A DNA stretch of 64,000 bases, taken from NCBI GenBank assembly GCA_002245135.1, contig NGBS01000005.1:62001-126000 (forward strand), written 5' to 3'. Below the pieces are notes generated by a model. That model saw only the letters and a list, made by a program, of their open reading frames with translations, did no database searches and was not told the origin of the DNA. Source of the stretch: Proteromonas lacertae. Its lineage: Eukaryota. The translations under genes were made by a program, and so were the position numbers. The first letter of the stretch is position 1. Every line of letters starts with the position of its first letter. Shown here piece by piece: positions 3,001 to 64,000 of this stretch.

Positions 3001-6000
3001 AAGTAAAAGATATTGAAAATCCACCTGAAAAAGGTATAATCTCATTAAAAAACATAAATGTGAATGTGAATAAAGAAAAGAATTTGGAGTTACATTTTGC
3101 TATAGATCAATTACAAAGTACATTAAATGATTCAATACCAATTATTCAGACAAAAGAAATTGATTTTTTCAAAGGTATTTATAGACAAAGTAATAAGAAC
3201 AAAATGTTAATTTTATCATTTGATGATATTAATATATATGGTAATTCAGGCTTTACTAATGGTTTATCATACTTAATTTCACCTGAATCAAATGATTCAT
3301 TGACAGTAATTCATCACAAATCACATAATAATCAAATAGATCAGTTATCCAATGAAAATACAAATAAGAATAAGCAAATAAAGAATAATAAGGATGAAAA
3401 GAAAGAAAGAAATCCATTTTATATTTATATTCGATCAAATAAAACAACTGTATTTGTTCCTTATCAATATAGTTACAATTTTAATGATAGTTTTGCTTTA
3501 CATCTTAAGCAATTTAGTTTTAATTCTTCTCCACAGAATGACGTATTTATTAACGATTTTATAACTAATATTGATTTTGAAGAAGGTTTAAATATTTATG
3601 AAATAGAATTATATGGTATAACAACAGATAAAAATGAATATAATTTTGAATACTATAATAATCCTGAATATACTTATAAAATTATTCAATCTATTGATAT
3701 GCATTTAGTTAATAAGAAATTATCATTTTCTCCAATAACAGTAACACTTCCATCTTATTTAGTGAAGCAATTAATGACTTCTATTGATGTTGTTTTAAAG
3801 ACTATTTCATTGTTTAGAAAACAAAAAGATCCAAATCAATTACCAGAACCAAAACAAATACAAACAACAAATAGTGAATTTATCGTTGATATTCCATCTG
3901 TAAATGCAATTTTAATATTAAATGAAAGTGATAGAGTAGAAGTAGTTGTTGATCATTTTAGTTTTACATCTTCGAGTGATATGAATGAATCTCAAACAGT
4001 TATTCAAGCTAACAATATAATTGGTAAGTATTATGAGAATGATAATGAATTATATACTTTATTATCATTTGATTCTAATACTAATGATGAAAATGAGAAA
4101 TTTACATTAACAATGACAACTATAAAATCAAACAATGATGAAAGTAATGTAAGTGTTGATTCTGAAAGTTCAATGTCTATGACTATACCTCATATTGCAG
4201 TAAATCTTAGGTTTAAAGATTTGATGAGTATAATTAATCTATTTACTCAAAAGAAACCAATATATCCATATCCATTAAGAAAAGAAATACCATTAAATGA
4301 TAAAAATAATAATATTCAACAAATCAAAACACCCTATAATATAAAGATATTTGATATTCAATTGAAATGTAAAGTATTTGAAGAAATGGATAAACCTCCA
4401 ATTGTAGTTAGTTTAACTTCAAATATATTATATAATAGACATTATATTTGTAGTTTAGAAGCACTGGATAATAAAGAAGTTAAACCTGATTTGGTGGAGG
4501 ATATTTCAATTATACTTCTACTAGGAATTGATATATTAAAGTCATTAGATTCTGATACATTTTATACACTACTAAATCCTTTAAATTTACAGTTTACTGG
4601 TTCAATGCATCAAAGTTCAGTTGATTTTTCAATTGAGACTGAATCAATTCAATTAAATATAATGAAAAACACATTTCTTCCTGTTGTTGTTTTAATTAAG
4701 AGTATAACAAAACCAAAAGCTGATAAAAATATTGAAATGGAAAAACAAAAACAAACCAAAAACAAATCTTCACAAGTAGATGAAAGATATTATACAATTC
4801 CATTGTCTTCATTCAATTATAATGATAATAAAGCATTACAACCATTACAATACAATATATTAACTCATACACTTGATGAATATGATGATGTAAACAAATG
4901 TTATGGTTTAGAATGGAAATTCCAAAATGATTGTATCTTATCAAATCTAATATATAATGCTGCTGATGGAATTCCATCTATTCTATTGAAATGTGATTTG
5001 TATTATTTCAATTATATGATAGGGGATTATGTAGGAATCTATTCATTTAAAGTTGATTTATCACAAACACAAGTATATATGATTCCTTTATTAAATTCTG
5101 AGAATAAATCAATCGATTCTTTGCCATTATTTCCATCATCACTGTGGAGGTTAGAATATCATATATTATCAATTATATCTAATCTAAATGAATCTACCAT
5201 TACTCAGATTAACAATATTCTACAGAGACAAATTGTTTTTAAGTATCTTATTAACAATTTTAATGATCATTTATTGAACTTAACTGTAAATTTGAAGAAT
5301 ATTACACTCAATGTATCTGATATATGTAATGTAGAAGAAGATAATAATAATAATAATAATAATAATAGAATTTTCAATAAGTATGTATTTAAAGATTTTA
5401 ATACAAATTTGTACAAATATAATAACATATTTTCATTGCTAGTCAATTCAGAAATGATGCTAAGTTGTTGTTATAGAAATTCAAATATGTATTATTCAGC
5501 AATTAAACCATCACATGTTGCATTTTTATATCAAAAGGCTAATTCAAACTTTAATAATAATCAGAATATGCTATTGTCTTTATCAAATTCAACTATAAAT
5601 GTTTTACCTGAAACTGTTTATTGTTGTTATCATCCAATTATTGGTATTATTAATAATATAAAAGGAAATTCAACTCATTCTAATCCACCTGTGTTAATAC
5701 AGAATTATACATCTAATAGACTGTATTATTGTGAATGTAATTCAAACCTAGTTCAAACCTTATTACCCTATAAAACAGGTAGTTATAACTCAACAAAACC
5801 ATTATTATTTGAATCACATTCAAAGATTCATTTTAGTCTATCACCTCCATCTACTACTTCCACTTCTTCTTCTTCTTCTTCTTCTTATAATGAGATTAAT
5901 GATTCTAATTATTGGAGTGAACCAATACAATTCCATGAAGGAGTAACCACACTGTATATGAATCCACCAAATGCTTATGAAGAACTTAGAAATATATGTG

Positions 6001-9000
6001 AGAAGAAAGACAAGAAGTGTGTTTATCATGTATATCAGGTTGAAAAGAATGGTTCTTATGTTTTATCAATCTATCCATCATGTTTCATAACAAACTTGTT
6101 TGATGTCAAATGCAATGTAAAAATATATTATGATGGTGAAAATTCTAAAGAATTAATAGTTAATGAAAATGAAAAACATCCAGTTATATTACCAAACCAT
6201 GAAAATGAGAATGTTAAATATTACATTGAAATACAACCAAATAAACAGAATGAATCATTTGAATATAGTTCAAAATATCCACTTAATTTCGTAGATAATC
6301 AAACAACATTTATTAAAATAGCATCTACAAAATCAAAGAAAGAATTTCTCCTACTATTAGAAATGAAGAAATACACTCCAGAAGAAAAAATGGAAGCTAC
6401 TGTTTGGAATATTGTATTAAAACCAATAGTAGAAATAGATTCAAGTCATTTTAATTGGAGATTGTTATATGATTCTGAATTGTTTTACACCACAAGTAGT
6501 GGTGATATTGTATATACATATTATTATTTATTTATATAGAATTTTGAAGTAGAATTTCCAACAACACCATATTCAGATTTCTTCTTATATTTAGAAGTGA
6601 ATAAAGAAAAGACTTGGATTGAAGTAAAGAATCATAAAATGAGTTTAGTGTTTAATAAGAATGGAAATAATAAATTACCATTGAATATTACCATCTATCC
6701 ATCTTTGACCATCACAAACTATTGTACTAATACAGTTTCATTAGAATATGTATGTGTAAAAAGTAATAACGAAGAAAAAGTATTAATATAATAATTATTA
6801 TAATTATTGAATAGTTTTCATTGGAGTATGGTGAATCAAGAAGTGAATTTTGGAGTTTGCATAATAATTTCTATTTAAAATTAGGATATAAAATTAATAG
6901 TATAACCTACTGGTCTCAACCACAGAAATTCAAAGGTGTAGAAAAGACTTTAGAGATCCCATACAAAATCCCATTAACAGGTGAAATTATATTTGTAGTT
7001 AATTTCAAATGGATTATTGAAGATAATAGTGATTATAGACTCATCATTTCACCACTGTACAGATTATGGAATATATGTGAAAGACCATTGTTTATTACTT
7101 ATGAAATACCTAAATCAGATCCAAAACCAATTCTGATTGATGATAAGCCTTCATCAAGCATGGAAGAATATAATCTATCACCATCAACACTTGAAAGAAC
7201 ATCAACAACAACAACACCAGTAACACCCACATCAGATAGTGATATAATGATTGATAATCCACCTAATTCAACAAAGAAATCAAAAATAACAATTGATCAT
7301 TATAATATACAATATCTCACAACAAAATGTGATGATAAATATGGAATTGATTTACCTATAAATACATCTACAAATTGTACAGTTTTGATAAATGTAAATG
7401 AATCTGAGATTCATATCAATCCATGCCATTATGTTGATATAACAAATAGAAGTCATGTTTACTTAAATCCTAATGAATTCATACTAGTAAACACATCAAA
7501 AGATGAAAAGGAAAACTGCACTGACTTCATTCTTTCAATTGAAAAACAACCATCTTTAATTGTTGATAATAAAAGTGATAAGAATATAGATATTAAATAT
7601 GAGGATGTGATAGTTGAAATTCCTTCTAATAATGTAAAACCAATCGAATGGGATAGTTTATGTGGATTTCCGTATATTGCTAATGTTAATAAAGACTCAC
7701 AAATACATGTATTTGATGCTGTTAAGAAATATTCATTATATGTAAGAAATCCCAATTCATCTTGGTCTTATCCAATCATATTGAATGATGGTAAATATAA
7801 TATGGTATTGGATGATAAAGATCAAAACGATAATAAATATAAATATACAATTACTGTGAAGCATTATGGTAGTACTTATGAATTAACTGTAAATGATAAA
7901 CTTGAGAATAATAATAATAATAATGGTGAAGATAGTACTAAAGCAAAAGAGAATATAAATATAAACAATATGAGTGTATTAGTAAAGAATTTTAAAATTA
8001 ATATGTGGAATAGTGTAACAGATAAGAATTGTTTATTCAAATTGAATATTGGCAATAGTCATTTGACAATGAAGAAAGTCACTAGTATGAATATAGAGAA
8101 AGATGAAATATTATCAATAATGAATGAATATCATGTCCAATTATCATCCCTACAATTCTACTTTAATGATTTAATAAATAGAGAATGTAAAACATTGCTG
8201 TCCATATCACAAAGAGAATTAATCCATATAATTGATATAATCAAATGTTCAAATAATAAATACAATTCTATTCCTTATTATCCATCTGTTATCTTCAATA
8301 TTCCATATACTGTTGGTGATGTTGAAGAATATCAAATACATACCATAATATCATATGTAAAATCAATAATAACTGAATTGAAACAGTTCAATCCAAGTGA
8401 AATAGATTTGAAGAATCCTGAGTTAGTTATAATGAAAAAGAATGAAAAAGTAGTTAGTGCAATTGAAAATAAAATGGATGAATTTAAAGCAAAGACTGAA
8501 ATATTCTATCATATTGATAATTTTTCTATTAGTCCAATCAACATGAAAGTTACTTTAAAACTAAAGAAAGTAATCTATTTTGGTGTTTCTAATTTACCTC
8601 TTTCACTCAATTCTATCACTACCACTCAAATACATTGTCAAATGAAGAGATTCACAAAAGAAATAATATCAAATTATATTACTGATTTAGTAATTCATAG
8701 TCCTATGTATTTAGGATCTTTAGATTTGATTGGTAGTCCAGTTGTATTGATTGATTCTATTGGTAAAGGAATAAATGCATTTGTTTCACAATTAAGAAAC
8801 ACAAGATCAAATTATGCACATAATAATAACAATAATAATAATATATTTATCAAAGTAGCTAGTGGAAGTGGTCAAATGTTATATTATTTTAGTGAGGGTA
8901 TTTTATCATCTATTAATGTATTATCTTCTACATTATCTAATAATATTACAAGACCATCAAAAGTTGAACCAATCCATAATTCATATACTACATCAACATC

Positions 9001-9445
9001 TAAACAACAACAATCATCATATATTTCTTATATTACAAAACCTATTGGTGGTTTGTTTAATATAATAACAAATACAACATCTTATATAATGGAGAAAACA
9101 GGAATGACATCTGAAACTAAAAGATATGAAGATAGTGAATTTATCTTATATTATTTAAATATAAAGTCATTGAAACATATCTTTAATCACAATTTTCTAG
9201 ATGAATCGTGTTTATTTAAATGCAATATTATCGACAATGAAGTTGAATATATGAATGTATATTGTTTATTGAATAAGAAGAAAGTATGTTTAATTGATTG
9301 TAATAATGGTATTGTTAATTTACTCACTACTTGTTTAACAAGTGAAATAAAGACTGAAGGAAGTTTTGTTTATATTAAAGAATTTAAGATGATAATGAGT
9401 AAAGATGTAGTAAAAGTAATTAATTATGAGAATAATAAGATATAG
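1..9445 (+). CDS. VPS13: VPS13-family bridge-like lipid transfer protein (VPS13B-like C-terminus); 5' end lies outside the window
   Basis: Long ORFs are joined by short GT-AG introns (donors near 50, 557, 786, 1622, 2747, 6510, 6780). The C-terminal signature is 'FSISPINMKVT...LPLSLN...YLGSLDLIGSPVVLIDSIGKGINAF'. VAB-like repeat starts are present ('IQNYT', 'ITNLFD', 'ITNYC', 'LWNIC', 'VDNKS'). One frame break at ~2832-2910 is unresolved. Confidence 0.85.
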
Positions 9446-12940: not shown

Positions 12941-13949
12941 ATGTCTCAACTAACCAGAGGTATGAATTGAAAATACTATATATTTATAGAGGCTCAAACT
13001 ATCTTTAAGGCTTATGATACTAATGGTGATGGCTTGCTAACTAAGAATGATATTGGTCAAATATTAAGAGATCTAGGTGAACATCCCGAACCATCCGATA
13101 TTATTACAGCTATAATGGAATGTGATGTAGACCAAGATGGTTTTCTAAGTGCTAAAGAATTTAGAAATTATTATGAAAAAATATCGTCAAAATACCATGG
13201 TGAATGTTACAATAGACTTTTAATAGGAGATAGAATTGGAAGAGTGCGTCGTTCTGCATACACATTGCCAGCTTCTACATTTGTCTATGGTAAACCAAGT
13301 GGTAGTGATCCAGAAGGTGTAGGTGATTGTATATTTTATTTAATTAATTATACTGTAAATAGTATTATCATATTGGGATGAATTTGATCAAAAGAAGAAT
13401 CATGTAGCTGAACCAGATTATATACCAATGAATATTCATGCTAATGACGATGGTTGTGTAAAAGCTCCAGAATACAGAGCACATCATTTAGCTCACACAA
13501 TATACAAACAATACCAAGAAATCATTCCTCGAAGTAATAAACCAGAAATACCAAAGAAATACCGTGAAAACAGATTTGGTCAATTAGGACGACCATCCAC
13601 ACCAATCAAAATGTTAATCACAAATGAATTCGCTGGTCCTCAGGATGAGAGAGATTACCCAATGATTCCAAGAAGAGATGAAGCTAAGATTATACCAAAA
13701 GCAAGAAATACTATTGCTAGTAAAGCTAGATTACATTTAACAAAGAAGAAGTTAGAACCACCAGAAGACACAACTAAATTATGGAAAATGTCAAAGTTCC
13801 GAGAAGTAGAATCTAAAACTGCTACAATATACAAATCTCCAAAGAATACTTTAACAAAAACTGCTTCAAACACATTACAGAGAACTGGAAGTGCTACACA
13901 AAAACCAGAAGAGGAAGAAGAAGGTCCTCGTATCGTAATGGCTGAATAA
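12941..13949 (+). CDS. CFAP77: CFAP77-family axonemal microtubule inner protein fused to two N-terminal EF-hands
   Basis: EF loops DTNGDGLLTKND and DVDQDGFLSAKE are followed by CFAP77 motifs 'NRLLIGDRIGRVRRSAYTLP..FVYG..EGV', 'DYIPMN..GCV..E', 'FG..RPSTPI..L' and 'LWKMSKFREV'. Two short introns. Confidence 0.85.
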
Positions 13950-17568: not shown

Positions 17569-19423
17569 ATGAATAAAATTTGTCGATTTTCTCGTAGTTT
17601 AAACAGAATTTCATTGTATATTTATATTTATTTACAATATTATTCTTTATAGGTATAGTAAAAAGTGTATAGTTAAGAATAAATCTCTGATTAGAACATT
17701 TTCGAAAAATATAAAAGAATGTGATGTATTAATAGTTGGAGTAAGATACAATATTATGAATTTATTTGAATAGGGTGGTCCATCTGGATTGAGCGCTGCT
17801 TTGAAACTAAATGAACTGTGCAAGAAGAATAACAACAAATTAGATATATGTATAATTGATAAAGGTCAAGAAATTGGGTCTCATATACTTTCAGGTTGTG
17901 TAATGAATCCAGACTCTCTTGATTCTTTTTATCCTCCCTGGAAAGAAGAATTAGAGACAATCACTCCTGTAACACAAAGCCAATTATACTATCTAACAGA
18001 AAAATCAAATATAAAAGTACCATCGCTATTTGAATCTTCAAATTATAAGAATAAAGGAAATATAATGTTGAGTTTAAATGAATTAATAAGATTAGTAGGA
18101 AACTATATAAAAGACTTAGAAGATGCAAATATAAGTATCTATGAAAGTGCATCTGGTAGAGATATTCTATACAATAACAAAAATGAAGTAAATGGAATAA
18201 AAGTATATTTACCAAATAACGAATCTAAAGAAATATACTGTAAGTATTTAATACTGAGTGAAGGAGTAAAAGGAACTTGTACAAGAGACATAATAGAAAA
18301 ATATAACTTAGTAAAAAATCATAATTATCCAAATTATGGAATAGGAATAAAAGAAGTATGGAATGTTAATAATAATAATAATAATGGTAAATGTATTCAT
18401 ACTTTTGGATTTCCAATTGCTAAACATGAAAGAAATGCATATGGTGGTGGATTTATATATGTATTGAAGAACAATGTTGTACAAATTGGATATGTATTTA
18501 TATATTAATATTATATTTATTTAATAGATTGTTGGATTAGATTATAAAAATCCGTATATAAATCCATATAATGAATTTCAATTATTCAAATCTCATCCAT
18601 TTGTCAGGAAGTATATAGAAAATGGAGATAGAATAGCTTATGGTAGTAAGATTATTACTGAAGGTGGATATTATAGTATTCCTGAATTAGAGTTTCCAAA
18701 TGGAATTATTATTGGAGATAGTGGTAATTTAATGAACAGTGCAAAGGTAAAAGGAGTTAGTAATGCAATAGAAAGTGGTAAAATTGGAGGACAATATATT
18801 TATAAGAAGTTATTTAATAAAAATAATAATAATAAATCATTTAGAGAAATGATAATAGATAATGAAATAATTGGTAAAGAATTATATAAAAGTAGAAATA
18901 TAAATCAAGCATTCAAACATTCAATACATTATGGCATTATTCAAAGTGTATATAATATATTAATATATATTATTTATATATATAATAGTATATATCATCA
19001 ATATTTAAAGGTAAAGAACCATATTCAATATCATTAAACAAGAAAGACTGGGAATTTACACATTCTACGAATAAGTATAAACCAATACAATATCCAGAAT
19101 ATGATGGAAAATTGACATTTAGTAAAGAAGATAGTTTAGTATATAGCAATATTCAACATAGACAAGGACAAAAACAACATATTACTGTATTAAATAATGA
19201 TATTCAAAAAGAAACATATAAAAAATTTGGTGAATTGGAGAATAGATTATGCCCTGCTGAAGTTTATGAATTTGTTAAGAAAGAAAATGGAGATGATTTT
19301 GAATTAAAATTACATTGTGAAAATTGCTTACATTGTAAAAGTGTTTGTGTTAAAGCATTGAATGATAATATTCTGTGGAATCCACCAGAAGGAGGAAGTG
19401 GACCTAATTATGAGTTAACATGA
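17569..19423 (+). CDS. ETFDH: Electron transfer flavoprotein-ubiquinone oxidoreductase (ETF-QO)
   Basis: Basic, mitochondrial-presequence-like N-terminus. Spliced 'DVLIVGGGPSGLSAA', 'DKGQEIGSHILSG', 'YGIGIKEVW', 'YGGGFIY', 'GLDYKNPY', 'EGGYYSIP', and C-terminal 4Fe-4S 'CPAEVYE...NCLHCK...WNPPEGGSGPNY'. Confidence 0.95.
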
Positions 19424-22381: not shown

Positions 22382-23532
22382 TTAAAACACGTTCCATAAA
22401 GATGAAAGAGTCATTTCAGAAGGCAATTCCTCAACAGCTATACCAATTTCATTACTATAAACTACAGGTCTATTAGAATTCTGACCTCCTAATGCAAAAT
22501 ATGCAGCTAAATTATCACCTCCTCCAGAATTAATAATTTCAATATCATCAGTCTTTTGTTCAACTTTAACATTTTCAGAAGGTAATTGCTATTAATTAAA
22601 ATAATATTAAAAACAATATACTTTATCTTCTAATTTATATTCTACACCAAATATTGGATTTACACTGAATATTTGGAAAAGACTTAATACTTCTTGATAT
22701 ACATCATGCAATTTTTCAGCTGGATCAATTCTAAATCCCAAAGTATAACTACCACTCTGCGGTAAAGTATCAATCACTAAGGCAGGACCAAATTTAGAAT
22801 CTCTTATTCTCACAAATTTCTAAATAAATAAATAAATAAACAAATAAATATAATAAAACATAAAAAAATATACTAATTGTAAATATGGCATAGAAACATT
22901 GAAATTTTCAGCTAAGTTGGCAAACCAAACTAATCTTACATTAGTGATATATAAAGTGCCCAAATTACCTTGATCATTAGATAAATTCCATACGCCATTT
23001 ATTGTATTACATATTTGTTCATTTGGTAATAAAATCAATTGTTTATCTTTAATTATTGCACCTCTTAATTTTAAATCACGATATAGTTTTGTGGTTTCGT
23101 ATGATCTATATACTGCTTGAATACTGGTGAATAATCTTGGACTTGAACGTACAAGATTGGTAAATACAAATTCGAAACGATTACCATCGAATTTTGTGAC
23201 AATATAAAATGCTTGTACTGTTCCTTTTAATCTGGATGCTGCTGTTTTAATACTGGTACTTACAATAGTATTATATCCAATACTAAGATTTGTTCTCACA
23301 TTTGCATGACTAACCCACATAATTCGAAGATTAGTGATAGTTAGTGAACCACGCTCACCATTATTACCTTTTGTATCTTCTACTGAATTTATTGAATCAA
23401 TTTTCACTTCTCCTTGTCTGGGTTGTAAATCTCTATAAAACGAAGAGAATAAAATATCTAATACTTTATAGGTGAATCAAATCTAATTTCTCTATCTTGC
23501 CAAATATATTCAACATCTTCATCATCATCCAT
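22382..23532 (-). CDS. BBS5: Bardet-Biedl syndrome 5 protein (BBSome subunit)
   Basis: 'WQDREIRFD', 'VEDTKGNNGERG', 'NLSIG', 'RFEFVFT', 'LYRDLKLRGA', 'GVWNLSNDQGNLG', 'SKFGPALVI', 'GFRIDP', 'PIFGV'. Three introns. Confidence 0.97.
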
Positions 23533-43687: not shown

Positions 43688-46600
43688 CTATAAGTTAGGC
43701 ACCTCATCCACTTTTTCTAATGGCTTCTCTAATCTTGGAGTCCTTTGAGCGCTAGCTGTGCCTAAAAATGAGGTTCGTATTTTACCAGGACTTGGACTTG
43801 TAATTTCTTTTAATAGAGATTTTCGTAAATTAGTTGGACTCACTGCTCCGGTAGCTCCTCTCTGTGATCTATTTAATGGGCTTGTTACAGCACCATCTAT
43901 CAACGAAGACTTTCGTGAGTTTGGAATACTATTCAATCCTTTAACCAACGGTTGAATTTGTAGTGGAACAGGTGTTGGATGAACAGATGCTGGACTTGAG
44001 CCATAGTTTCCTATTGCTCTAGAGTTACCATTGTTCATTTCAGGTGTTTCTGGATTATCAGTATCACCATCACCACCATCTTTTCCTCCATCTTCTGATG
44101 AACTATCTTCATCATCTCCTTCATTCACATGAGTACAATACAATAAGGAGACTTTATTACCAAATTGAAGAAATGCAACAACAAACACACCACCATTTAT
44201 TCCTATCGTTCTAATAAAGGCTAATGCAGTAGGTTGATCACTTAAAGCATAATCAATACCAAGCATTGCTAGAGACCAAATGCAAAGTATAACAATTGTG
44301 GAGATTAAACTTAAGGATTCATTAAACTCAGCAACAACATTTCTAATCTTATATGCGACTTGAACACCCCATGCTGCTAATGCCAATATTCCTAATGCTT
44401 GTGCAATTCTATTAATAAATATTATATACATCTATATATATACAAAAAGTATCTTTCAGAATCACAATTTCTAACATAAACATCTGTTACAAAGTCACTC
44501 AATTTTATATTCAATTCTTGATGGTGATAGACTGGATCTACAAAAGTCCATATTAATAAATAAATAATTTGAATTGCTATAACACCACTAATAACCATTA
44601 GCAATCTTAAATTGCCTATTCTCATCTTATTCAGTTGTTTGTTATTCATCAATTTGTGAATTCTCCACACTTTCATAACGAATGTTGAAAGTAATAAATC
44701 TAAACTAATTAAAATAAACCATTTTCTTATAGCACAAGTAAAATCATTTTCAGGGTAAATTATCATAATCATACTACAACTAGCCAATAAGAATAATGCA
44801 AACATAGCAATTACACTAAATAAATAACTTGTATTTCTAACAATAGGATTATGTCTATTCCTTGTAAAAACATAGAAAACTGACAATAAATATAAAACTA
44901 CAACTACATACACTAGATAACTAGCAATAATTGAATCAGGATATGTATACATCTGAACTAATTTTCCTAAATCACAATCAACTTGTGGATTAGTATAAAC
45001 TAATCCATTAGTTGGATATTCAACACTATCAAAACCATTTTGACTTATACTCTTTACAAAATAAGTTGTTACTAAAATACCACTTTTATCAATCTTTCCT
45101 AAACCATTTGGAATTGCCATACTATATTCTTTCAACGCTTGATTAATATAATTTGCATTTGGGAATGAATTACCAGTATAATCAGTCATCACATTATTAA
45201 TTGCATTTGCTAGTAAGAATAAAGATGAATAGACTAATGAATTAATTTCAGAATCACCTTCATTATTTCCAAATATACTATGAGCTTCTGTCTTAAATAC
45301 AGTACCTTCTGTATTGTCTTCACTGCTTGATAATGTGTCAATACACATATGTCCGTTGAAAAAAGTATATTGTTCTGGATTCCAGTAGAATGGGTTACAT
45401 TCTCTAAATATAAATACGAAATTACTATTATCTAACAATCTCTTATATTTCATTATAAGTTCTCGAAGTTCAAACTCTTTTTTACCTTGTACTAAAACAT
45501 ATACTGCAATATGACTTAGTTTTGTTGATAGTAATGTTGGTAAGATTGTTGGTATTGATTCCATTCCTTCTTCAGTAGTGATGTTAATTGATGTTAATAA
45601 TGGACTTTTATTCTTTACAAACAGTAATTTAAATTCTTCAAGAATATTACTATAGAATAAAATAAACATTTATATATATATATACTCTACTTCATAATCA
45701 TAAAGTATCACTGAATCAGTAAATGTTAAATTCATAACATATTGATTAGCTATATCAAACCTTTGATAATAATCACTTTGGAAATAAAAGAAATTTCTTT
45801 TACATACACTTGTATCATCTAATCCAAAATAGAAGTAAGGTATTGCTGTATTCTCAGTCAATTTCTCTACAATTTGTAATAAAAACGGTTGTCTTCCACC
45901 AACTATTGTTATTGGGTCATAATCCTTAATTGCTTTAGTTAAATCCTTTTCAATTTCTTCTTCGTTACTATAAACATTATAGAAGGACAATTCATATCCT
46001 TTCAATTTAAAATCAGTCTCTGTTTTTGATACAAATAGATCAATTGTTCTAGCTATGCTTGTTTCTTCATTCACTGTATCTGGACCAATAATATGCACAA
46101 CTACCACATTCTTCACAATAGTATTCTCTTTAGCCATCGGATTAAACTCACAAATTTCAACACCAGTTAAATTATAGTAATCAGCATAAAATGATGAATG
46201 GGACAATGAATTTGGACTGTAATATAACATAGCACCTAAATAGGTGAATTTCACCACGAATAATCTTCTAGCTAACGATCTACTTTTATCCAACACTATT
46301 CTACCAGCCGCACTTTCAACAACAACTTCTGATATTGCATTTATATTTTCTATAACATCTGTTGTTCTTGTGTAGGATATTGTATTGTGAATGTAATAAA
46401 CAGATGTATAAGAAGATTCACTGACAGAATCAGCTGTAATTCCTATTCCAAAATGATTTAAAAGACTACTCATAAACTTATTTGCATTTATTGGAACATC
46501 AATATCAACATTATCATCCTTCATGTTAATTCCATCAACAAATGAACCTGATGCAAAATGTCCATACAAATAATCAATTAATGAAAAATCAGTAAAAAAC

Positions 46601-49600
46601 TCATGTGGTGGATCAGTAAACAATATATGAATATCATCAATATTAAATCCTTCATCCTTGAAAGTCATTAATAAATCAATATCAAATGCACCACCTACAG
46701 TACTAATTATTACTCCTTTTCTTATCTTCACCATTTCACTGTTTGTCCAAAACTGAGTAAAATCAGTCCCATCCTTATCTACTTCTGTTAGTGATAATAC
46801 ATCTATTCCATAATACTCTAATGTAGGTTTCATGTATTTGGTAGTAATCAAATACGATTCTGAGGTTTTATCTTTATCACATATTAAATAAACTATTGGT
46901 TTGATTTGTAAAACTGCACCAACTAAAAACTTGGATAACTGCGGACCAGTCATTTCTGTTGAAATCAAGTTCTTTACACAATATGCTTCTGTTAAAGTTG
47001 AAGATGAGAAAAACACTTGATCAGTATTATTTAAGAATGTCAATATAGTTTTCATTAAGACAGTAGTAGTAAAACCAACTATATATATATTCTTATTCAT
47101 TCTAATTGATGTTTGGAATTCTAAAAATGAATCTTGATTATCTAAATTGTAAAAACTAACAGCAACATAATAACCCAATGTTCCACCTCCATTATTTATT
47201 TCTTCTTGTGCTAATATTACTCCTTCAATTACACTTATTGATTTTTGCCTGTTTTTATCATAATGAAGAATTACATTAAGGTTATATTTATTCTTTGGTA
47301 ATTTCTTGCTAATTGATGTCTTTGTTATTGTACAAACATAATATGTGGCTTCATTTGTAAGGTATTTATATGGATAAGGAGTTAATAAATCAGAGGATGT
47401 GAATGTTAAATAAATTTCAGTTCCCATATGCATAGATATTCTAAAATAAAACATCATATAATTTGAACTTGATAATTTCAAAACACCTTCAGGAGTTACT
47501 ATTTCATTCTCTCTATATGCTTCAAACAATTCAACATAAGAAAATGTCTTGCATTTTTCAACCATTCGATCAAATGTCAATGCAATTGAATATAATTTTG
47601 ATACTACACTATTTGGCTTTTTATGTAACCATTCTTGCACTCTACTGACCATTAATTGATTTTCTTCATTTTCAATTTGACTTGAATATGTACTGAATAC
47701 ATCATAAGTATAATTACCTTCCATTTCTTCTAAATCAAAAGCAACAAAATGATATATTGATAAATAATAATCATCAAATGTATCTAATAAATTATGAAAT
47801 GCAGAATCTAAACCAAAATATAAAACTGCACTATACTCATCACCAAGATAATCTTTTATCTTTTGTGATATTTCATCAACATTACTATGTGTTATATTAC
47901 CAATAATTGAAACATTTTGAAATAAATTAGATAAATAGATATTGGAATATACTACATGAGAATATTGTTGTGGCAATCCTCCTACAACTGCAAATTTCTT
48001 AAAATTCTTTGTTAAAAACATTTGATAAGCTCTTTCATAAAAGCTAGGCTCAACATCAAAATAAATAATATTTGAATCACATGATTCACCTTCAATCGAT
48101 GTATATACAAAGATAGGAATTTTAGCTTTTTGTGTTGTTGATTTTATAGTTGATAAACATGATGGAATTGCGCCATAGATTATTCCTATTAATCTTGACT
48201 TTATTTGCTCAACTGAGTCAAACAATCTTTCACCACATGTCTCCTCATCACTTTGATCATCGAAATATTGAATTACTATACGCTTTCCTAATATACCTCC
48301 ATCTCTATTGGTTATTTGAATCATTTGTGACAATACAATCGGAATATCAACAGTCTCAGATGCATATATACCTGTAGTGCTTGAACAGATTAATAAAAAT
48401 CCATAATCTTGTGGTATTGGATCACTTGAACCAGTAGTTACATCACATTTACGACCCATTGAATCAATACTATACCACAAAAATGCTACTGGTTGATAAT
48501 CTTGTACAGTTGCTACATTGGTGATAAACTTTCTTTCTGAATTCATATATCCAACATTTATATGATGTGAAGAATAATAATTTGGTAATATTTCTATTTC
48601 TCCATTTGGTGATTCTATTCTTAAATTAACCAAGTTCTCTCTCAAATCAAGTCTATCAATTGAATTACCTTTTTCTACAGCTGCTCTTATATATTCTACA
48701 GCTAAATAAGAATTATAAGCATCTTCAGATAAAAAAGCAGTCAATGAATGTCTTTGCCATGTCTGTAATAACTTAATATTTAATGGATTTGTTGAGAATA
48801 AATCATAACTTATAAAGAAATAGGTATTTTCAAAACTTGGATTTGTCATTGTATCTTTAGTATCTGGAACTAAACCAAAGAAGTAATATTTAGTCAAATC
48901 GATATGTAAATTACTTCTTATCTGCTCTAACAACTGTAAGTGATAATTTGTAGTTAGTAATGAGAATATAAGTCCTTTTTCTGGTATATAATTAAATACA
49001 GTTCTAGCTACATTTAATGACGAAATAGATGCATCATTGCCCATTATTATTCTAATATCTGTTACAAATGGCTTAAATTGCTCCAGCAATATATCTTTAA
49101 AAACATCAGAAATACCAGTTTCACCTTCTATAATATACATATAAGGTATTGCATCACTTAATAAAACATAATTCAAAATCGGATCACAGAATTGATTCAT
49201 AGTTGAACCAACCTGTACAACATCTAAATTACATTCATTACCTAACGTTTTAGCTGGGGTAAAAAATAAAAGATCAGAATTTGCTCTTTTTAATGCTGAA
49301 GATACCATCATTCTAGCTTCTTCAGATTTTCCTCCCATTATTGCAATCATTTTTGGATCTCTAATAAATTCATTCACTATTGATGGTATTAAACTGTCAG
49401 ATTTAGTATTTCTTAATACTGGAATTACATATATTCCATCTAAAAGTCCACCTTCTTCATTGATTGTTGTTATTGCTGAGATTGCAGACATTCCACTAAT
49501 TAATTCATATTCTGAATTTGTACCTGTTACATCATATAATAACCCTATTTTTACATAATCTGGTTTATAATCACCTCCCTTTTTCCAATCACATATTCTA

Positions 49601-52600
49601 ACTTCATTTTCATCAAATATATTATACACAAATACTTTATAATTCAATTTCATATTTGGATATACATTTGTCAAAACATATCTGTTACTACTTCTATCTA
49701 ATTCAACTTTTCTTATTGTTCCTCTTCCATATAAATAATGACTTAAATCCATAATTAAATTTCCAGAAATACTATCAAATTCTAATCCTTCTCCTGCTGT
49801 TATTACAGACATTAAATCAAATGATTCTGCTTTTCTTGCAGAGTTAAGCCACAATTCAAATGCATTATATGTATTTGCATGTAATTCATTAAATGATTCT
49901 TTATAAGTCATCTTCTTCTTTATACTCTCATAAAAATAATAATACTTTGATGATTTATCTGGTCTTACATAATTCAACCATATATAATGGCCTACAGTTG
50001 TATAACCATAACCACTTCTATTAATATCATTTTCATTCATTCCTGTAGCTATTATTGTCATTGTATTTCTAATTACTCCATAACAACCCTTAAACAATTC
50101 CATTGTTAAACTCCCTTTTAACATGGATAAAATAATACCATTAGTTCCTAGTGAATTGGCTATAATCTTAGCAACTCTCTGAAAATCAGTGTTTTGTGTA
50201 TATACATAATATTTACCAACTAATTTAATACCAAATATTTCAAACCTTTCTTGTAACATTTCTACTTCAAATTTTGTTTTCTCAGAATTCATAACTACAA
50301 TATATACTTTAGTAGCTGTGAAATTTGTTCTTAATAAATAAGGTAAACTTAAAAAATCATTTGTCATCATACCAGTATAAAAAACTTTTCTAGAACACTC
50401 ATGTCCTTCTGTATTACCTGGATAATACAATACCATTTGTCGACTTTCAATTATTGATAAAGCTTTTATTCTTAAAGTAGAATCTGTCAAACCAAATATA
50501 AATTTAATACCATGTGATTTAAATTTATCAAGAATAGCTGGTATTGTATTAACATCACTTTCATCATTAGTAACAATTGGATTTATATAATAACCATTAA
50601 CACCACCATTCTCATTGATAATAAAAGCTAGACTAGTAATAACAGCAGCTAATCCTTTACTAGAATCAGCTAATTCACCTGTAAACGATTGAATAACTCC
50701 AATTTTGATATATTCTTTCTCATAGGATGGATTTGATAATGTCAAATCACATATCTTGTATTTTTCTTCGTTGTATAGTAAAAAGAATGGTTCTGGACGC
50801 CATGAAACTGATATTTGTGTTATATCATATGATAGCTTCATTCCATCTCTGGTAATTTGTACTGCATAAACTGGACGACTCATATAATGACTATTATCAA
50901 ATGTAATTGTACCTTCAAAATCATTTAATTCATAACCAATTAGATCCTTTTTGAAATTCTGAATATTTGGATTTGAATATGTTTTATATACATAAATAAT
51001 AGCTTTCATAGCTTCAGCTGCTAATAAGACATTTGGAGGAGTATAATATGATAATGACATATAAGGAACAGCATTTTTAAGATATTCTGGATTAGTTACA
51101 GCAGGAGCATAAGTAGTTGTTATAAAATAATGATTCTTCATGAGATTTACTTCTATCATACCTAATGTGAATGAGAAAAATGTTAAGATTTTAACATCAC
51201 TATTATGACCATTATATGCTTTATGATACTTCTTTGATAAATCTTCTGGTAACAAATCAATTATAAACCCAATATCTTGTGTAAACTGTAATTGCTTAAC
51301 TATTACTATATTATAAGTACTTGAATCATCAGTCAGTTTATCTATTTTATAAGAAATACTTAATTCATCACATAATTCAACAATAAGATTGAGATAATTA
51401 CTCACATTCATACTATCACTATGTATTATTGACACTTTATTTCCGAATTTTTCAAATGCCCAAAATAGAGTTGGTCTTAAATGTTGTATTGGTGTTACAT
51501 CCATATACCATCTATTTAAATAATAGATAAATAATAATAATTATTATTATATATATACATTGAACTACTACAAGCACTTCTTAAAGAGGGTCTTATATAA
51601 AAGAATACCATGTCAATAGAAACTAAAGTATTATCCATTTTCTCCAAACTAGTTAAAGGACAATCACAAATGCATAACATAAATCCTAAAAAACTATATC
51701 TGACTAATATTGTTGAAGCTTCAAGTTCATTGGTAGGACAATTTGCCCTTTTTATTATACCTTGATAATGGATTGTTTCTGGTAAATTGCCACTTCCAAG
51801 TATTTCATTCAAATAACCAATAATAGCTAAATTTCTAGCTACATTAGCAGGTTCATTCAATATTAATATTTTCATTTGTGGATAAGTCCCATTAGCCAAT
51901 ATTGACTGATCACTCCAGTCACAATATACATCAGTATTACCAAACATTGGATAAATATAATTGGAATTCTCATTAGTAATCATTGGATCAAAGCCATTAC
52001 CATTATGTACCATTACACCAGTTATCATTGAGATATATATTTTTCTTTCAACATTATAATTTGGTCTTAGAGTGATTTGTCCAGATGGACTATTCAATTG
52101 TATATTTATTAACATTCTTTGGATATCTTCCATATTATTATTATTATTTGCAGACACAAACGCTTTTTCTATTAATTTCATTCCTTCATACATTGCCATT
52201 GTTACTCCTGTAACAAGATAACTTGGACCAAATGTTTGTTCTACATCTTGAATGAAATGAACTGATTCTTGATTGGTTAATTTGTAGAAATATGAATCTA
52301 ATGCCATATTAGTACCTTCTAATCTATCAAATACTTTAATTATATCTTTTAAATATGGAGAAATAATTATAGTACCATATACTTTACCTAAATTAGTTCT
52401 GTCTATACTTTCCAATAACTCCAAAGTAGTTTCTTGTGTTAATGCTACCACAGTACAGGACATTCTACTACAATCTGTTTTATTCAATTCTATTAAACCT
52501 TCATCAATTGCCGCACCTAATTCTGTTGTTTCATTCTTTCTTATTTTTATTATTTCTCTATTAAAATCATCTTTTGAATATTTCTCTAAACTTTCAATCA

Positions 52601-55408
52601 TTTCATCTTCTTCTCTACTTCCTGAACTAACAGTAACTATATTAGAACCTTGAACACCTGATACTTCAATCATTCTTGGAAATATCTGTGAAGCCATTAA
52701 GCCAGTATGAATAACATTAGAATAGCATTTACTACCAACATTGTAATGAGGATTGATTAAAATTGCGTTCTTCTTAACTATATTTGGAATAACTTCATCT
52801 AACATAGTTGAATTATCAGAACCAATAAAGTATCTAACTCCACTATTCAAACTAGCAATAACTTTCTTTGGAATAACAAATGCTGGTGCTGTTGCATATT
52901 CCAACTTCAACATAAAACCATTAAATCCTCCTTTTTGGTTAATCAAAGAAACAGCTAGTCTTAATTGACTGAGATAGTTTCTTGATTGTATGTTATGAAA
53001 TGTATAAATACCAAATATCTTTATAAAAATAGTATCATAAATTTGATTATCTAATTTGGTTAAATCACATACTGTATTATTATCATAAGCTAATGGAATA
53101 ATTGCATAATCAGTTGCAAATACTTCTTTATATTGTTTTGTATCATTATTATACGATTCTATTACAACATTCATTGTACTATATCCATTTACATCTATTG
53201 AATATGGACCTTGCACAAAGGACATATGTCTTTTGTATATATTATCGTTGATTGTATTTATATCTAATGAATTAGTCAATACTACAGTAGTATTCCATAT
53301 CTTTAGAGCAGCATAAGCCAATCCCATAAATCCATATATTGGTTGATGCAAATCAGTTTCATTAAATCTATAATAATTTGTAATTACATCTCTCATTTCA
53401 TTCATTACATCAGATTCTTTACTTTCAGCAAAGGGTGTTAATAAATAAATTTTCTTCATCATTTCTGTATCTTTGTATTTATCAAATACAGGCTCATATG
53501 TATTTATAAAGAATAATCTTATATTCTTATACACATCAGGTGTATTATTCAAATATTCTAAAAATTTGATAGTATCATCGAAATTTAAAGACATTACAAC
53601 CAATGATCCATAATCTGCAGTTGTTAATTCATCTGTTATATTATCCAATGGATATTTATACTCTTTATTCATTGTTCCTTGGTCATTTAACGAAACTACA
53701 TACAAATCTGCAATTAATTTATCTTCTGCAGTATCTGAATAAAACACAAATGTATAATTTCTTCCTACTTCTTGTGCCATATCAAATGCTAAAAGATGAA
53801 TCTCACTAATATGTTCATGAGAAAATCCTAAATTATATCTATATTTCTGACATTCATAACCACCATTATTGTGCAAATTAAACCATAATAATCCACTATT
53901 TCCAAAATCACTTAACATTTTCATTCTTGAAGAATATGGAATATCATATAACACTACACCTGCATCATATTTACTAGTTAACATTGTAATGTTATTCTTT
54001 ATATAAGTATAATCACTCAAACTATCAATATAATAACTAATTACTGTTTTATCTAATACACCACCACCTTTATTAATTTCATGAATATAACTACTAATTA
54101 TCCTAGAATAATAAATACCTACATTTTCATATTCTCCTGAATAGGGAACTATAATAATCACCATAACATAACTGCCGTTAATAATACCATTCACAGGTGA
54201 GGAAGTCCAATCACAATCACCTACAGGTAAATTACCAATTCTATCCCAAGGTGAAATATAATAGAAATCATCAAAATCATCAAATTTCTTGATTATTAAA
54301 TCACCACCATTTGCTGTACTTCTTAATTTATATAAATACTGTGTATTTCTAATTACATTACCTTTTATTAATGATGATATTGATATTGGAGATTCAAATG
54401 GTTTAATATATAAATTATTTAATATAATTGATATATTAAACGTCTCATATCTTTTAGCTACTGAAATGTATGTATCAAATAATGTATAACTATATTAAAT
54501 AAATAAATAAATATATATCTATACACTAAATATAAATATTGAAATGGTGGTGAATAAGAAGTGCCTCCAGGTGGTATTACACTACTAATCAATTCATGCA
54601 TTGCAGTTGCTTTATCACTTATATATTCTGGACTTATCAATGTAATAACTAAAGAGTCTTCATAATTATTACCACTATCTGCATCTCCTAATTCTAAATT
54701 TGCATAACCAACTGCTTCTACCTTTATATTATTGTTTGTTTTTAAAGTCTTTATTGCTGCATAAATTTCTGGATTCTTCAATGGACTTGTACTTATAATA
54801 ATTAGAATATCATCCTCAGTTATTCCTGTTATATCAGCAGTTAAACTACTTGATGAAGTATCAATTTCTTTTACTACTTTACATTTCTGGGTTTGACATA
54901 CATAACCTAAAACTTGCTTGATTTTAGTACTTTCTTCACGTTCTGATACAATCACAATCTTCTTCCATATTGAAGTTAAGTACAGAAGAGATCGACTGTA
55001 ATAAATACCTCCATCTTGTACATTCACTACATTCCTAGAACATGCATTCTCTTGAGTAGAAGCACAAAATATATAAACACCTTTTTTATACATATATTCA
55101 TCCAATGTCATTCCATCAATATTTGATATGCCATAACAAAAACCAAATATTATATCCACCTTATCAACCTCTACTAATTTTTTGATTACATCTTTGTTAC
55201 CATCAAAACTATAGGTATAACTATCTCCTTTTATTGCAATCTGCCTATCTGCGTGTTCTGAGTTCCAGTTGTCTACATACTTCTGAAATACAGCCTTAGA
55301 AGTTTTTGTTTTAGTAGGATCTGGATAATGCATAAACCCTATATTTAATGTTTCTCCATAAAAACATTGTATTGATATTATAAAAACCAAAATAATGTAT
55401 AACGACAT
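43688..55408 (-). CDS. Giant class C (7tm_3) GPCR-like receptor with nine tandem UrtA/AmiC-type periplasmic-binding (Venus flytrap) domains, ~3,855 aa
   Basis: Signal peptide at ATG 55408. Introns 54490-54524, 51512-51558, 45650-45685 and 44409-44443 join all ORFs into 3,856 codons. The repeats carry 'IN..GG..G', 'E-C' and 'CD[WL]' motifs. The 7TM region has 'P.VR..S..F', 'C..R.W', 'KVWRI', 'IWT.VDP', 'EFNES' and 'FGNK'. Confidence 0.9.
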
Positions 55409-59763: not shown

Positions 59764-61509
59764 ATGCATTTACTCTTTTATACTCTGATTACATTGATAA
59801 TATTCATTAATAGTTCATATTGTTCTTTACTTTTGGTAGTTGGTGATGTAACTCAAACAAAAGCAAGAATTTTGTATATAACAGCTTTATTAATTGTAGA
59901 TATGAACTTTTATATGAAGAAGAAAGTGATTCTTTAAAAGTCCAGATTTATAAACATGTATCTGGAAAGTTACAATTAGTATTAATATATATACCAGTAT
60001 ATATCTTATGTAGGTTGATGATACACATACAATAATCCCTATCCATAAGCCACAAATATTCATAGCTGAAGATCTTGAAACAAATATCACTTATTCCGTT
60101 CAATTTGGAATGAATAAATCAGAAACTGTAGAATTCAGAACATTTGCAGAAAATGAAGAACATACAAGATACTTAATTGGTTCTTGCGATAGATCCTATG
60201 AAGATAATGATAGAACAACTCTTCAAAAACTCTATGATTTAGAGAACCACAATTAGTATTTATTTATTTCATTTATATTTATTCATAGTGATGTGATGTT
60301 TCATACAGGAGATCAAGTATATGCTGATAGAGTGTGGAATATGTCATTGGATTTAACATATGAAGAAATTGCTGAAAGATTTCGTAATGTTTATAGAATC
60401 ACTTATGGTAATCCAGTTCAGCAATCAATACTTCGTTATGGTTCTCATCTTGCATTACCTGATGATCATGATATTATTAATAATCTGGATTCTTGGATGA
60501 ATAATGATCCAAAGATGAGATTATGGATTGAAGCAGCAAAATTAGTGACTTATGAATATCAAACACAATTATATATGGATTTGGATGAAAAGCTATTGAA
60601 AAATGATAAAATCTATTACTCAAAAAGGTATAATTTTTGTTATTTTATATGTATATATTAAATATATATAGAGCAGGAAATACAATATTCATAATGATTG
60701 ATTTGAGATTCTACAGAACTTATCATCCTGAAGATAAAAATAGTTTGATAGGAAGAGAGCAATATAGATGGGTTGAAAGAGAATTAATGGTATATATATA
60801 TTAATATATTGTTACTAGAAATATGATAAAGATGAATCAATTCAACATATTGTTATTGTTACTGGAGTTCCATTACTGTGGATGAATAGATTTTATTCAG
60901 GAATAGTTTATGCAGTAGAAAAAGAGAAATACACAGGTCATAAAGATTTATATCCACATACTCAACAATTATTGGAATTAATATGGAAATATAGAACTAA
61001 AGTTCATTTATTAGTTGGTGGAGATCATCATTTATATGCTGAATCATTAGTTTGTTTTAATAAGACATGTATTCCTCAAGTATGTTTAATGTCATAATTT
61101 ATGAAATATATAGATGGTTGCAAGTGGATTTACAAAAGGAAGTACAACTGGTTCTGAGCTTAAATTATCATTTTTACAATTCTGTGTTACACATTTCTTA
61201 AATTCTTTCTCTGATAAGAATTGGTATGTTAGATTTGGAGAGATATTTTTGTTTAAGAATTATGGTGTTATTACTGTGAATAAAGATGAAATGAAATGGT
61301 ATGGAGTTAAAGATATATCTTTTTAATAATCATTTTAATATTATTGAAAATTCTTAATTCTTATTTACGATACAGGAGCTGCATTTCCATTTTATATATA
61401 TCAAGCTCTATTTGACCATTCTTTCGAATTATTTATGACTTTAATATTCATTACCATCAATGTATTCTTCAATTGTTTCTGTAAAAAGAAACATATAAAG
61501 AAAGAATAA
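59764..61509 (+). CDS. PhoD-like alkaline phosphatase/phosphodiesterase with signal peptide and C-terminal TM
   Basis: 'VGDVT', 'GSC', 'HTGDQVYAD', 'DDHDI', 'DLR..R', 'G.EQ..W', 'GGDHH'. The final TM exon is reached through an AT-AC intron. Confidence 0.85.
61315..61368 (+). other. U12-type AT-AC intron, 54 nt
   Basis: Donor ATATCTTT, branch site TTCTTAAT, acceptor TTTAC. Removal joins 'WYGVKD' to a 47-codon exon (DTGAAFPF...TM...KKHIKKE*). There is no GT-AG pair inside this spacer. Confidence 0.8.
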
Positions 61510-63158: not shown

Positions 63159-64000
63159 ATGAAAAAATACATATATCTCATTACACAAATTTTATTACTT
63201 ATAAGTAAGTTTTTATTCATATATACTTTTAGATGTTTATTCTATAAAAGTTGATTTAAAATGCACAGCTTGGAGGCAAACGCTTAATTGCGATCCAAAA
63301 GGTGAGAGAGATTCTTTATATGATAAAGTATTTTTTGAGATATACTGAAACAGGATTGTGATGAAATCATAATGGAAGGAGTATCTGGATTTTGTGAATG
63401 TGAAAATGGGAGAATCATCATGAATTCAACTTGCAATCATCCTGCATTTAAGTGCAAAAAGTATTGTGAAAGTTGTTATGGATTCATTCCAACAAAAGAT
63501 TGTTCTCCTTACAGCGAAGCATCTCCCGAATTATATTTACCATGTTCAAGTGTAATACCAACAAACCAACCTGGATTCTGTCTCTGTAATAATGGAAAAA
63601 TAGAAAAAAGAGTTGGTTGTTTCCATGAACCATTTACATGTATAGATGTATGTTTAGAATCAATAACAAGGAGATGTTCCAAACTGCAAAAAGAACCAAT
63701 ATCAACTCCACAAGGTGGTGTATATATATATATATATATATATTTATTATTATTGTATTAAATAGGATTGTAAAGGAATCTTAAGAGTACATAATACTTT
63801 ATATGAAGGGATTTATATATTACTATTAGTTCCACCGCCTGAAATAGAACATTCTGTAGGAGGAATGAGTTCATTATCAGTGCAAACAATCACGGGATTA
63901 TGTCCAGGAGCTCATTTTATATTCAGAGGAAGTGAAGATAAAAGAATAATAAAACAGTTTATCTATGATGGTTCTACAACTGATATAGAATTAAGTGATT
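63159..64000 (+). CDS. Secreted/surface protein with two Cys-rich modules (C-x2-WRQT-x2-C...SG-F-C-E-C); 3' partial
   Basis: Signal peptide MKKYIYLITQILLLINVYS. Spliced 'CTAWRQTLNCDPKGER..DC..SGFCEC..C.H..F.C...C' is followed by a second degenerate copy. Confidence 0.75.

Follow-up and report, generated by a model that had tools for sequence, protein, structure and literature searches.

G-protein-coupled receptors (GPCRs) of class C that carry bacterial-type binding domains are known from Dictyostelium, chytrids, gut fungi and diatoms (PMC3251606, PMC5168858, PMC3727952, PMC10445921, PMC3971589). The Grl receptors of Dictyostelium carry a BMP domain, chytrid and gut-fungal receptors carry OpuAC, SBP_bac_1 or type II sugar-binding domains, and GPCRs of Phaeodactylum belong here too. 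For another protist flytrap protein, EhVFT of Entamoeba, a bacterial origin by lateral transfer was proposed (PMC12965686), and diverse ectodomains were reported for non-metazoan class C receptors (PMC12716839), whose domain list (Supplementary file 12) may bear on the novelty of the receptor described below. The entries listed for Proteromonas lacertae (27.0% G+C) number 116 for class C GPCRs, 182 for type I binding proteins and 7 for G-alpha, and eight Blastocystis genomes have 0 class C GPCR and 0 G-alpha entries (PMC12129017, Table S5). Here we describe a predicted gene in a stretch of 64,000 nt of P. lacertae DNA (contig NGBS01000005.1, positions 62,001 to 126,000; "the window", within which all positions are counted), the product of which would be a class C GPCR with nine extracellular repeats resembling UrtA, the urea-binding protein of bacteria.

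A sequence-only reading of the window had noted UrtA-like receptor repeats at 48440-50712 and proposed that a prokaryotic binding protein was fused to a eukaryotic seven-transmembrane (7TM) domain, apart from the ANF-type flytraps of animals, and was then tandemly amplified. The motifs it quoted for repeat 5 are all present in the minus-strand frame starting at 50712, and the interval covers repeats 5 and 6 of nine. Excising four GT-AG introns joins five open frames into a single frame of 11,568 nt and 3,855 codons (55408-43688, minus strand; Table 1). In a window with about 27% G+C and introns of about 35 nt, the four predicted introns measure 35, 47, 36 and 35 nt, all are in phase 2, start with GTATA and contain TA runs. 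The three ectodomain introns lie at differing positions inside repeats 1, 4 and 9, which agrees with the earlier remark that intron positions are not shared between repeats, and a single exon encodes half of repeat 9 together with transmembrane segments (TM) 1-4. The third-codon-position G+C content (GC3) of the gene (0.13-0.17) is like that of the neighbouring genes (0.14-0.20), so that the transfer is old.

The repeats are about 380 aa long and belong to the flytrap (type I binding-protein) fold class. Their number was determined with a profile to which only other proteins contributed (100 repeats) and is therefore not circular: nine consecutive domains scored 46-217 bits, while shuffled repeats stayed at or below 5.5 bits (scores from 269 of 270 shuffles). 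Two cysteines align across all nine repeats, which are about 17-28% identical to one another in the longer local alignments. The 7TM part is found by the 7tm_3 profile (PF00003), with a score on exon 4 well above the cutoff of 33.5 bits and a second match on exon 5 (Table 1), and GABA-B is found among the PDB entries with E 5e-10. Known class C marks are the TM3-ECL2 cysteines (ECL2, second extracellular loop), a basic pair at the end of TM3, an acidic residue in TM6 and PK in TM7 (PMC3727952); by eye we found the TM3 Cys, K..R at the TM3 end, the ECL2 Cys and the TM6 Glu, and the PK position reads NK (PK in the closest relative, P0001, see below). With a 7tm_3 domain and a large extracellular domain of binding-protein fold, the predicted product thus has the make-up of a class C GPCR.

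By origin the repeats almost certainly belong to the UrtA/AmiC family. PF13433, the UrtA/AmiC-type family, is the best Pfam match for repeats 2-8 (24-139 bits, for repeat 4 in the second-exon part only), and its cutoff of 27 bits is passed singly by six of the nine repeats (2, 3, 5, 6, 7 and 8), the part of repeat 4 reaching 24 bits. For repeats 1 and 9, which were scanned exon by exon, no Pfam match fell below E 0.07, and both were recovered by the family profile only. ANF_receptor (PF01094) remained below cutoff in the window's repeats, with a single appearance at E 0.054 and 13 bits in repeat 7, and no NCD3G match was found in the protein. Repeat 5 scores highest of the single repeats on the UrtA model TIGR03407 (135 bits, below the curated cutoff of 492.75). 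Among its 13 matches in the PDB the top four are urea-binding proteins (E 1e-23 to 2e-22), followed by AmiC (E about 1e-5), and although only about 25% identical to UrtA, it scores 87 bits against it and only 41 bits against the neighbouring repeat 6. Its model is a two-lobed flytrap with a predicted local distance difference test score (pLDDT) of 87; the fold search returned UrtA at the top, GABA-B from rank 43 and mGluR5 at rank 49, a ranking partly steered by the input alignment of 64 sequences, chiefly of the UrtA family. Folding of repeats 5-6 from the single sequence gave a pLDDT of 36. An UrtA-rich profile run against the PDB retrieved 43 sequences at E≤1, 0 of them eukaryotic receptor ectodomains. 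Profile and fold scores, through which the comparison with mGluR, GABA-B and Grl was made, thus support a separation of the repeats from eukaryotic ANF-type flytraps. Nor do the repeats form a stand-alone subunit adjacent to urtBCDE, as they are fused to a 7TM domain and flanked by eukaryotic genes.

Searching repeats 5-7 against 1.84 billion representative proteins yielded 803 matches, of which the best 150 were considered and 48 of these scanned with Pfam. The top match, P0001 (3,745 aa, N-terminus incomplete), has nine UrtA-like stretches and a 7tm_3 domain in the same layout as the window's gene, with 2996 bits in total over the nine stretches for TIGR03407, 74 bits for ANF_receptor and 130 bits for 7tm_3. 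P0041 is likewise a fusion of UrtA repeats with 7tm_3, and P0023, P0027, P0052 and P0070 are tandem fragments. Among the matches, tandem arrays were also present in about 30 AT-biased proteins of window-like composition; 7tm_3 was found in 8 of 28 AT-biased proteins scanned, and many of the remaining ones end in low-complexity runs that may stem from intron read-through. Ten proteins other than the window's show the fusion of repeats and 7tm_3. The 7TM domains of the window's protein and P0001 are homologous (76 bits) and have ECL2 and TM7 motifs in common, and the junction between the window's repeats 5 and 6 matches the repeat junctions of P0001. When positions were counted from the membrane, 51 of 57 repeats had their best match at the same position of another receptor and 0 of 57 in their own protein, which indicates that the array is older than the radiation of these receptors; the position-by-position correspondence holds for repeats 5-9 of the window, not for repeats 1-4. 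These data support an old amplification, common to the receptor family and with position-specific repeats, rather than a recent one in the window's gene.

Further arrangements were seen among the matches. The called open reading frames (ORFs) of P0002 and P0004 end at the alignment column where the window's gene has intron 4, so that an intron in ECL2 may be common to them, whereas the frames of P0016, P0018 and P0031 continue past this column. P0079, from a cluster of 46 members, combines tandem UrtA-like repeats with a short Cys-rich stretch, one hydrophobic segment and a glutaminase (PF04960, 284 bits), hence the same type of ectodomain on an enzyme-type output. Four proteins of about 1,500 aa (P0019, P0020, P0021, P0033) carry an UrtA-like domain at both ends, with HEAT repeats and/or an NTPase core (NB-ARC, STAND or AAA-like) in between. 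Word-index protein searches with repeat 5 and with the 7TM domain gave no match and also missed UrtA itself, which speaks for low sensitivity and not for absence. Pattern searches gave no match for repeat 5 in genomes or for P0041 in metagenomes, and a degenerate DNA pattern of the repeat junction hit three metagenome loci, all unrelated bacterial DNA, and 0 viral contigs.

As to the donor, we scanned genome loci with one P0001 repeat as the lead, covering 2 of the collection's 64 parts and 600 stretches out of an estimated 20,000, and kept 80 loci. The best 25 of these are all cyanobacterial, with 51-54% identity over about 382 of 385 residues, including the CDW..GGKY tail. Of the 80 loci, 38 combine the ECS Cys with a C-terminal CD[WY], 37 of them cyanobacterial and 1 acidobacterial; the remaining 42 lack both. 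Repeat 5 of the window has the ECS Cys and ends in CDW..GGDYK, as would be expected of cyanobacterial-type descent. The 28-row trees were made without P0032, P0044, P0045, P0019, L087 and one AT-rich repeat, and LivJ/LivK were included in the FastTree tree only. In LG+C20 trees, calculated with the tail columns removed, eight conserved tandem repeats form one clade (support 96) nested in a clade with cyanobacterial UrtA (99). Grouping them with UrtA of Bacillota, Chloroflexota and Actinomycetota was rejected (approximately unbiased (AU) test, p=2.4e-5). When repeats 5 and 6 of the window were added along with two AT-rich ones, the group of all 11 tandem repeats and 5 cyanobacterial UrtA was supported by 99/99. 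The clade with cyanobacterial UrtA is thus firm for the conserved relatives, and for the window's own repeats it is favoured, not exclusive. We regard a cyanobacterial-type UrtA donor shared with P0001 as probable; the transfer may have been direct or via a plastid lineage. Profiles, folds and trees together support the fusion and amplification proposed in the sequence-only reading.

UrtA likeness does not imply urea binding. The UrtA of Prochlorococcus binds urea much less or not at all when W120, S122, Q144, Y190 or N246 is mutated (PMC10392092), and we mapped these pocket residues onto the repeats by profile. Of 16 conserved tandem repeats from relatives, 8 have the full five-residue pocket (in P0001, P0023, P0027 and P0041), including 5 of the 8 complete repeats of P0001. 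The scorable repeats of the window keep 0-1 of the five (repeats 1 and 9 align too poorly for scoring); repeat 5 reads Thr, Ser, Asn, Ser and Lys at the five positions in the above order and retains equivalents of Ser122, Tyr141 and Glu146. Among 100 AT-rich repeats (>280 residues, ≥60 bits), 63 have lost all five residues and not one retains four, and both cysteines persist in 84-86. With its pocket mostly replaced, the window's receptor is unlikely to have urea as its ligand. Since the pocket varies while the scaffold is kept, we conclude that the ancestor likely sensed urea and that the window's protein likely senses other solutes.

The explanation we prefer, with a probability of roughly 70%, is that one cyanobacterial-type UrtA was joined to a eukaryotic 7TM domain of class C and copied in tandem long ago, and that the predicted product now acts as a G-protein-coupled sensor of small solutes other than urea. 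The two cysteines would form a disulfide that pins the tail of each repeat, with the next repeat following nearly linker-free; the available part of the UrtA paper (PMC10392092) does not mention a disulfide. The ancestral receptor presumably sensed urea, because five of the eight complete P0001 repeats keep all five essential residues, and in the window's lineage each array position may have drifted towards a pocket of its own. Closure of some repeats around their ligand would be signalled via the membrane-proximal repeat to a 7TM dimer and on to the G protein, as in other class C receptors. In this membrane-proximal repeat the pocket is gone even among the conserved relatives (1 of 5 residues in P0001 and P0041). 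More tentatively, and with the odds somewhat against it, one could imagine an unrecognised family of protist GPCRs that began with a cyanobacterial urea-binding protein joined to a class C 7TM domain and grew into chains of nine or more flytraps. Its slow-evolving members would still be multivalent urea receptors, and in an AT-rich flagellate lineage it would have expanded to dozens of receptors in which a disulfide-locked scaffold holds a separate pocket at each position of the chain, several solutes being read at once by one polypeptide.

Several results weigh against tracing the window's repeats to the same donor as those of P0001. Monophyly of all tandem repeats received a support of only 39/83, the window's repeats form very long branches (3.9-6.0), and FastTree drew them to the outgroup, a placement that we set aside as long-branch attraction. 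In a 35-row search (unfinished, two AT-rich bacterial proteins included) they left the cyanobacterial clade and took a place next to an AT-rich protein from bacteria; for the same set the constrained tree beats the free tree by 14.2 log-units. Placement with AmiC and amide-binding proteins was not rejected (AU p=0.41). The affinity to bacterial UrtA that the sequence-only reading named as support from a phylogeny is seen for the repeats of the conserved relatives, while the window's own are not firmly placed. For repeat 5 the group profiles come out close together, with 153 bits for the conserved tandem, 148 for the bacterial sensor-fused and 125 for the cyanobacterial group; the highest-scoring group is AmiC/amide for repeat 3 and the sensor group for repeat 8. 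A cysteine pair occurs also in an amide-binding protein and CDW in L064 and P0100 outside the clade, so that these features are not exclusive to cyanobacteria, and the eukaryotic origin of P0001 and the other relatives is read from 7tm_3 or the tandem layout. The near-equal scores, the AU result and the shift of placement with taxon choice would fit a separate transfer, in which the window's repeats came from another UrtA/AmiC-family member (sensor-fused or amide-binding) and merely resemble the P0001 type. We nevertheless hold this to be rather unlikely, because the window's repeats are linked to the conserved set by the matching junction and by a homologous 7TM domain that has motifs in ECL2 and TM7 in common, the CDW..GGDYK tail is absent from the sensor-fused matches and the best trees favour a single clade. 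That the flytraps are vertically inherited eukaryotic ANF-type domains, or that the locus is bacterial contamination or a chimeric assembly, is largely refuted: the fold is common to all type I binding proteins, and GABA-B and mGluR ectodomains do appear in the fold search from rank 43, but neither the Pfam scan nor the UrtA-rich profile connects the repeats to eukaryotic receptor ectodomains, and the exon shared by repeat 9 and TM1-4, the spliceosomal-type introns, the host-like GC3, the eukaryotic neighbours and the ten other fusion proteins leave this with a minimal chance.

The main rival to a sensor of solutes other than urea accepts the same ancestry and takes most or all repeats to be ligand-blind structural units of a long stalk or of an adhesion or mechanical sensor, with a 7TM domain that is constitutive or signals upon contact. 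The pocket positions without consensus, set beside the persisting cysteines in the AT-rich repeats, and the low identity between the window's repeats are what such a stalk would lead one to expect, whereas the conservation of position identity across receptors and the complete two-lobed flytrap modelled for repeat 5 are not; these two observations are in keeping with selection for separate roles, among which ligand binding need not be one. We estimate this alternative to be clearly the less probable one, if of some weight. That the receptor still senses urea or a short amide through repeat 5 or another repeat appears improbable. Repeat 5 is the most UrtA-like of the nine and retains its three residue equivalents, and full pockets do exist in four relatives, but Trp120, Gln144, Tyr190 and Asn246 are all replaced in it and no scorable repeat of the window exceeds one of the five essential residues. 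We therefore keep to the sensor of other small solutes as the preferred reading.

The remaining genes of the window are listed with the features of the receptor gene in Table 1. BBS5 and CFAP77 make a host with cilia or flagella likely. Taken with the 0 class C GPCR entries of the eight Blastocystis genomes, they speak against Blastocystis as the host, and the base composition, the short introns and the listed P. lacertae entries are in keeping with a Proteromonas-like flagellate. The very long multi-exon gene at the left end looks Vps13-like by eye. A Blastocystis gene-end motif is only weakly enriched in the window, with 12 matches against 6.1 expected and 3 of 100 shuffles as high.

Table 1. 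Predicted features of the receptor gene and its neighbours in the window.
Feature	Position	Strand	Remarks
Whole gene, five exons	43688..55408	-	Exons 55408-54525, 54489-51559, 51511-45686, 45649-44444, 44408-43688; predicted 3,855-aa class C GPCR, splicing from sequence alone
Predicted signal peptide, aa 1-17	55358..55408	-	Hydrophobic N-terminus, read by eye
Repeat 1, most diverged	54198..55357	-	Contains intron 1 (54490-54524); 46-53 bits, independent family profile
Repeat 2	53052..54182	-	PF13433 30 bits, TIGR03407 36 bits
Repeat 3	51906..53042	-	PF13433 55 bits
Repeat 4	50734..51887	-	Contains intron 2 (51512-51558); PF13433 24 bits (second-exon part); 117-123 bits, independent family profile
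Repeat 5, most UrtA-like	49561..50715	-	ECS Cys at 50397, CDW Cys at 49593; PF13433 139 bits, TIGR03407 135 bits; PDB UrtA E 1e-23; model pLDDT 87, top fold match UrtA
Repeat 6	48418..49560	-	PF13433 64.5 bits, TIGR03407 53 bits
Repeat 7	47311..48411	-	PF13433 45 bits
Repeat 8	46135..47289	-	PF13433 31 bits
Repeat 9, membrane-proximal	44959..46119	-	Contains intron 3 (45650-45685); 80-87 bits, independent family profile; most similar to a relative's membrane-proximal repeat
Class C 7TM domain	44147..44958	-	Contains intron 4 (44409-44443); PF00003 88.5 + 24.7 bits; best PDB matches GABA-B
Cytoplasmic tail, about 150 residues, with stop codon	43688..44146	-	Acidic, then Ser/Thr/Pro-rich (sequence)
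Very long multi-exon gene	84..9445	+	No Pfam match at E 0.01
CFAP77	13359..13949	+	39 bits
ETF-ubiquinone oxidoreductase-like gene	17774..19420	+	Several exons
BBS5	22820..23476	-	298 bits
PhoD-like phosphatase	60257..61326	+	Weak match
Small Cys-rich ORF	63339..63761	+	No family match

That class C receptors arose by joining a bacterial binding protein to a 7TM domain is an old idea, and in the animal receptors the donor is no longer traceable by sequence. Here one family member has a tested repeat that still shares about 52% identity with a bacterial donor group that can be named, and other members show tandem copying, position-specific drift and replacement of the pocket. The fusion model can thereby be put to a direct test, as it predicts GPCR domains of the P0001 type that bind urea; if this is true, the slow-evolving members would to our knowledge be the first urea-sensing GPCRs. 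The array also raises the question of how a chain of nine flytraps drives one 7TM domain, and the family is a candidate chemosensory repertoire for flagellated protists. Tandem UrtA-type GPCRs were not found in the published literature searched, whose scope left out subscription journals (including the Proteromonas genome paper). The fusion principle is known, while the donor family, the traceability of this donor and the nine-unit array are what we did not find in print.

Compared with the known systems, the window's repeats resemble cyanobacterial UrtA (TIGR03407; PDB 8HIC, 7S6E, 7S6F) in fold, in motifs along the whole domain, in the ECS Cys and in the CDW..GGKY tail. However, UrtA is a single soluble subunit of an ATP-binding cassette transporter, while the window's protein has nine copies on a 7TM domain and has mostly lost the urea pocket. 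Bacterial sensor fusions (histidine kinases, Ser/Thr kinases, cyclases) likewise use an UrtA-like domain as signalling input, but mostly end short of the CDW tail, contain one or two copies not in direct tandem, and branch outside the clade of cyanobacterial UrtA and tandem repeats. EhVFT of Entamoeba differs in being a single-domain, glycosylphosphatidylinositol-anchored protein without 7TM and with an ANF/GABA-B-type annotation. The class C receptors of metazoans (GABA-B, mGluR, CaSR) are alike in 7tm_3, with GABA-B as the closest solved structure, and in their extracellular flytrap fold; they have one ANF_receptor flytrap, in mGluR and CaSR along with a Cys-rich domain, in contrast to the nine PF13433 flytraps of the window's protein. 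Alike in principle are the protist and fungal class C receptors, in which a prokaryote-like solute-binding domain was also recruited to 7tm_3. These use other binding families and have N-termini of up to about 1,600-1,670 residues, and the available parts of the papers do not name UrtA/PF13433, a cyanobacterial donor or an array of nine units.

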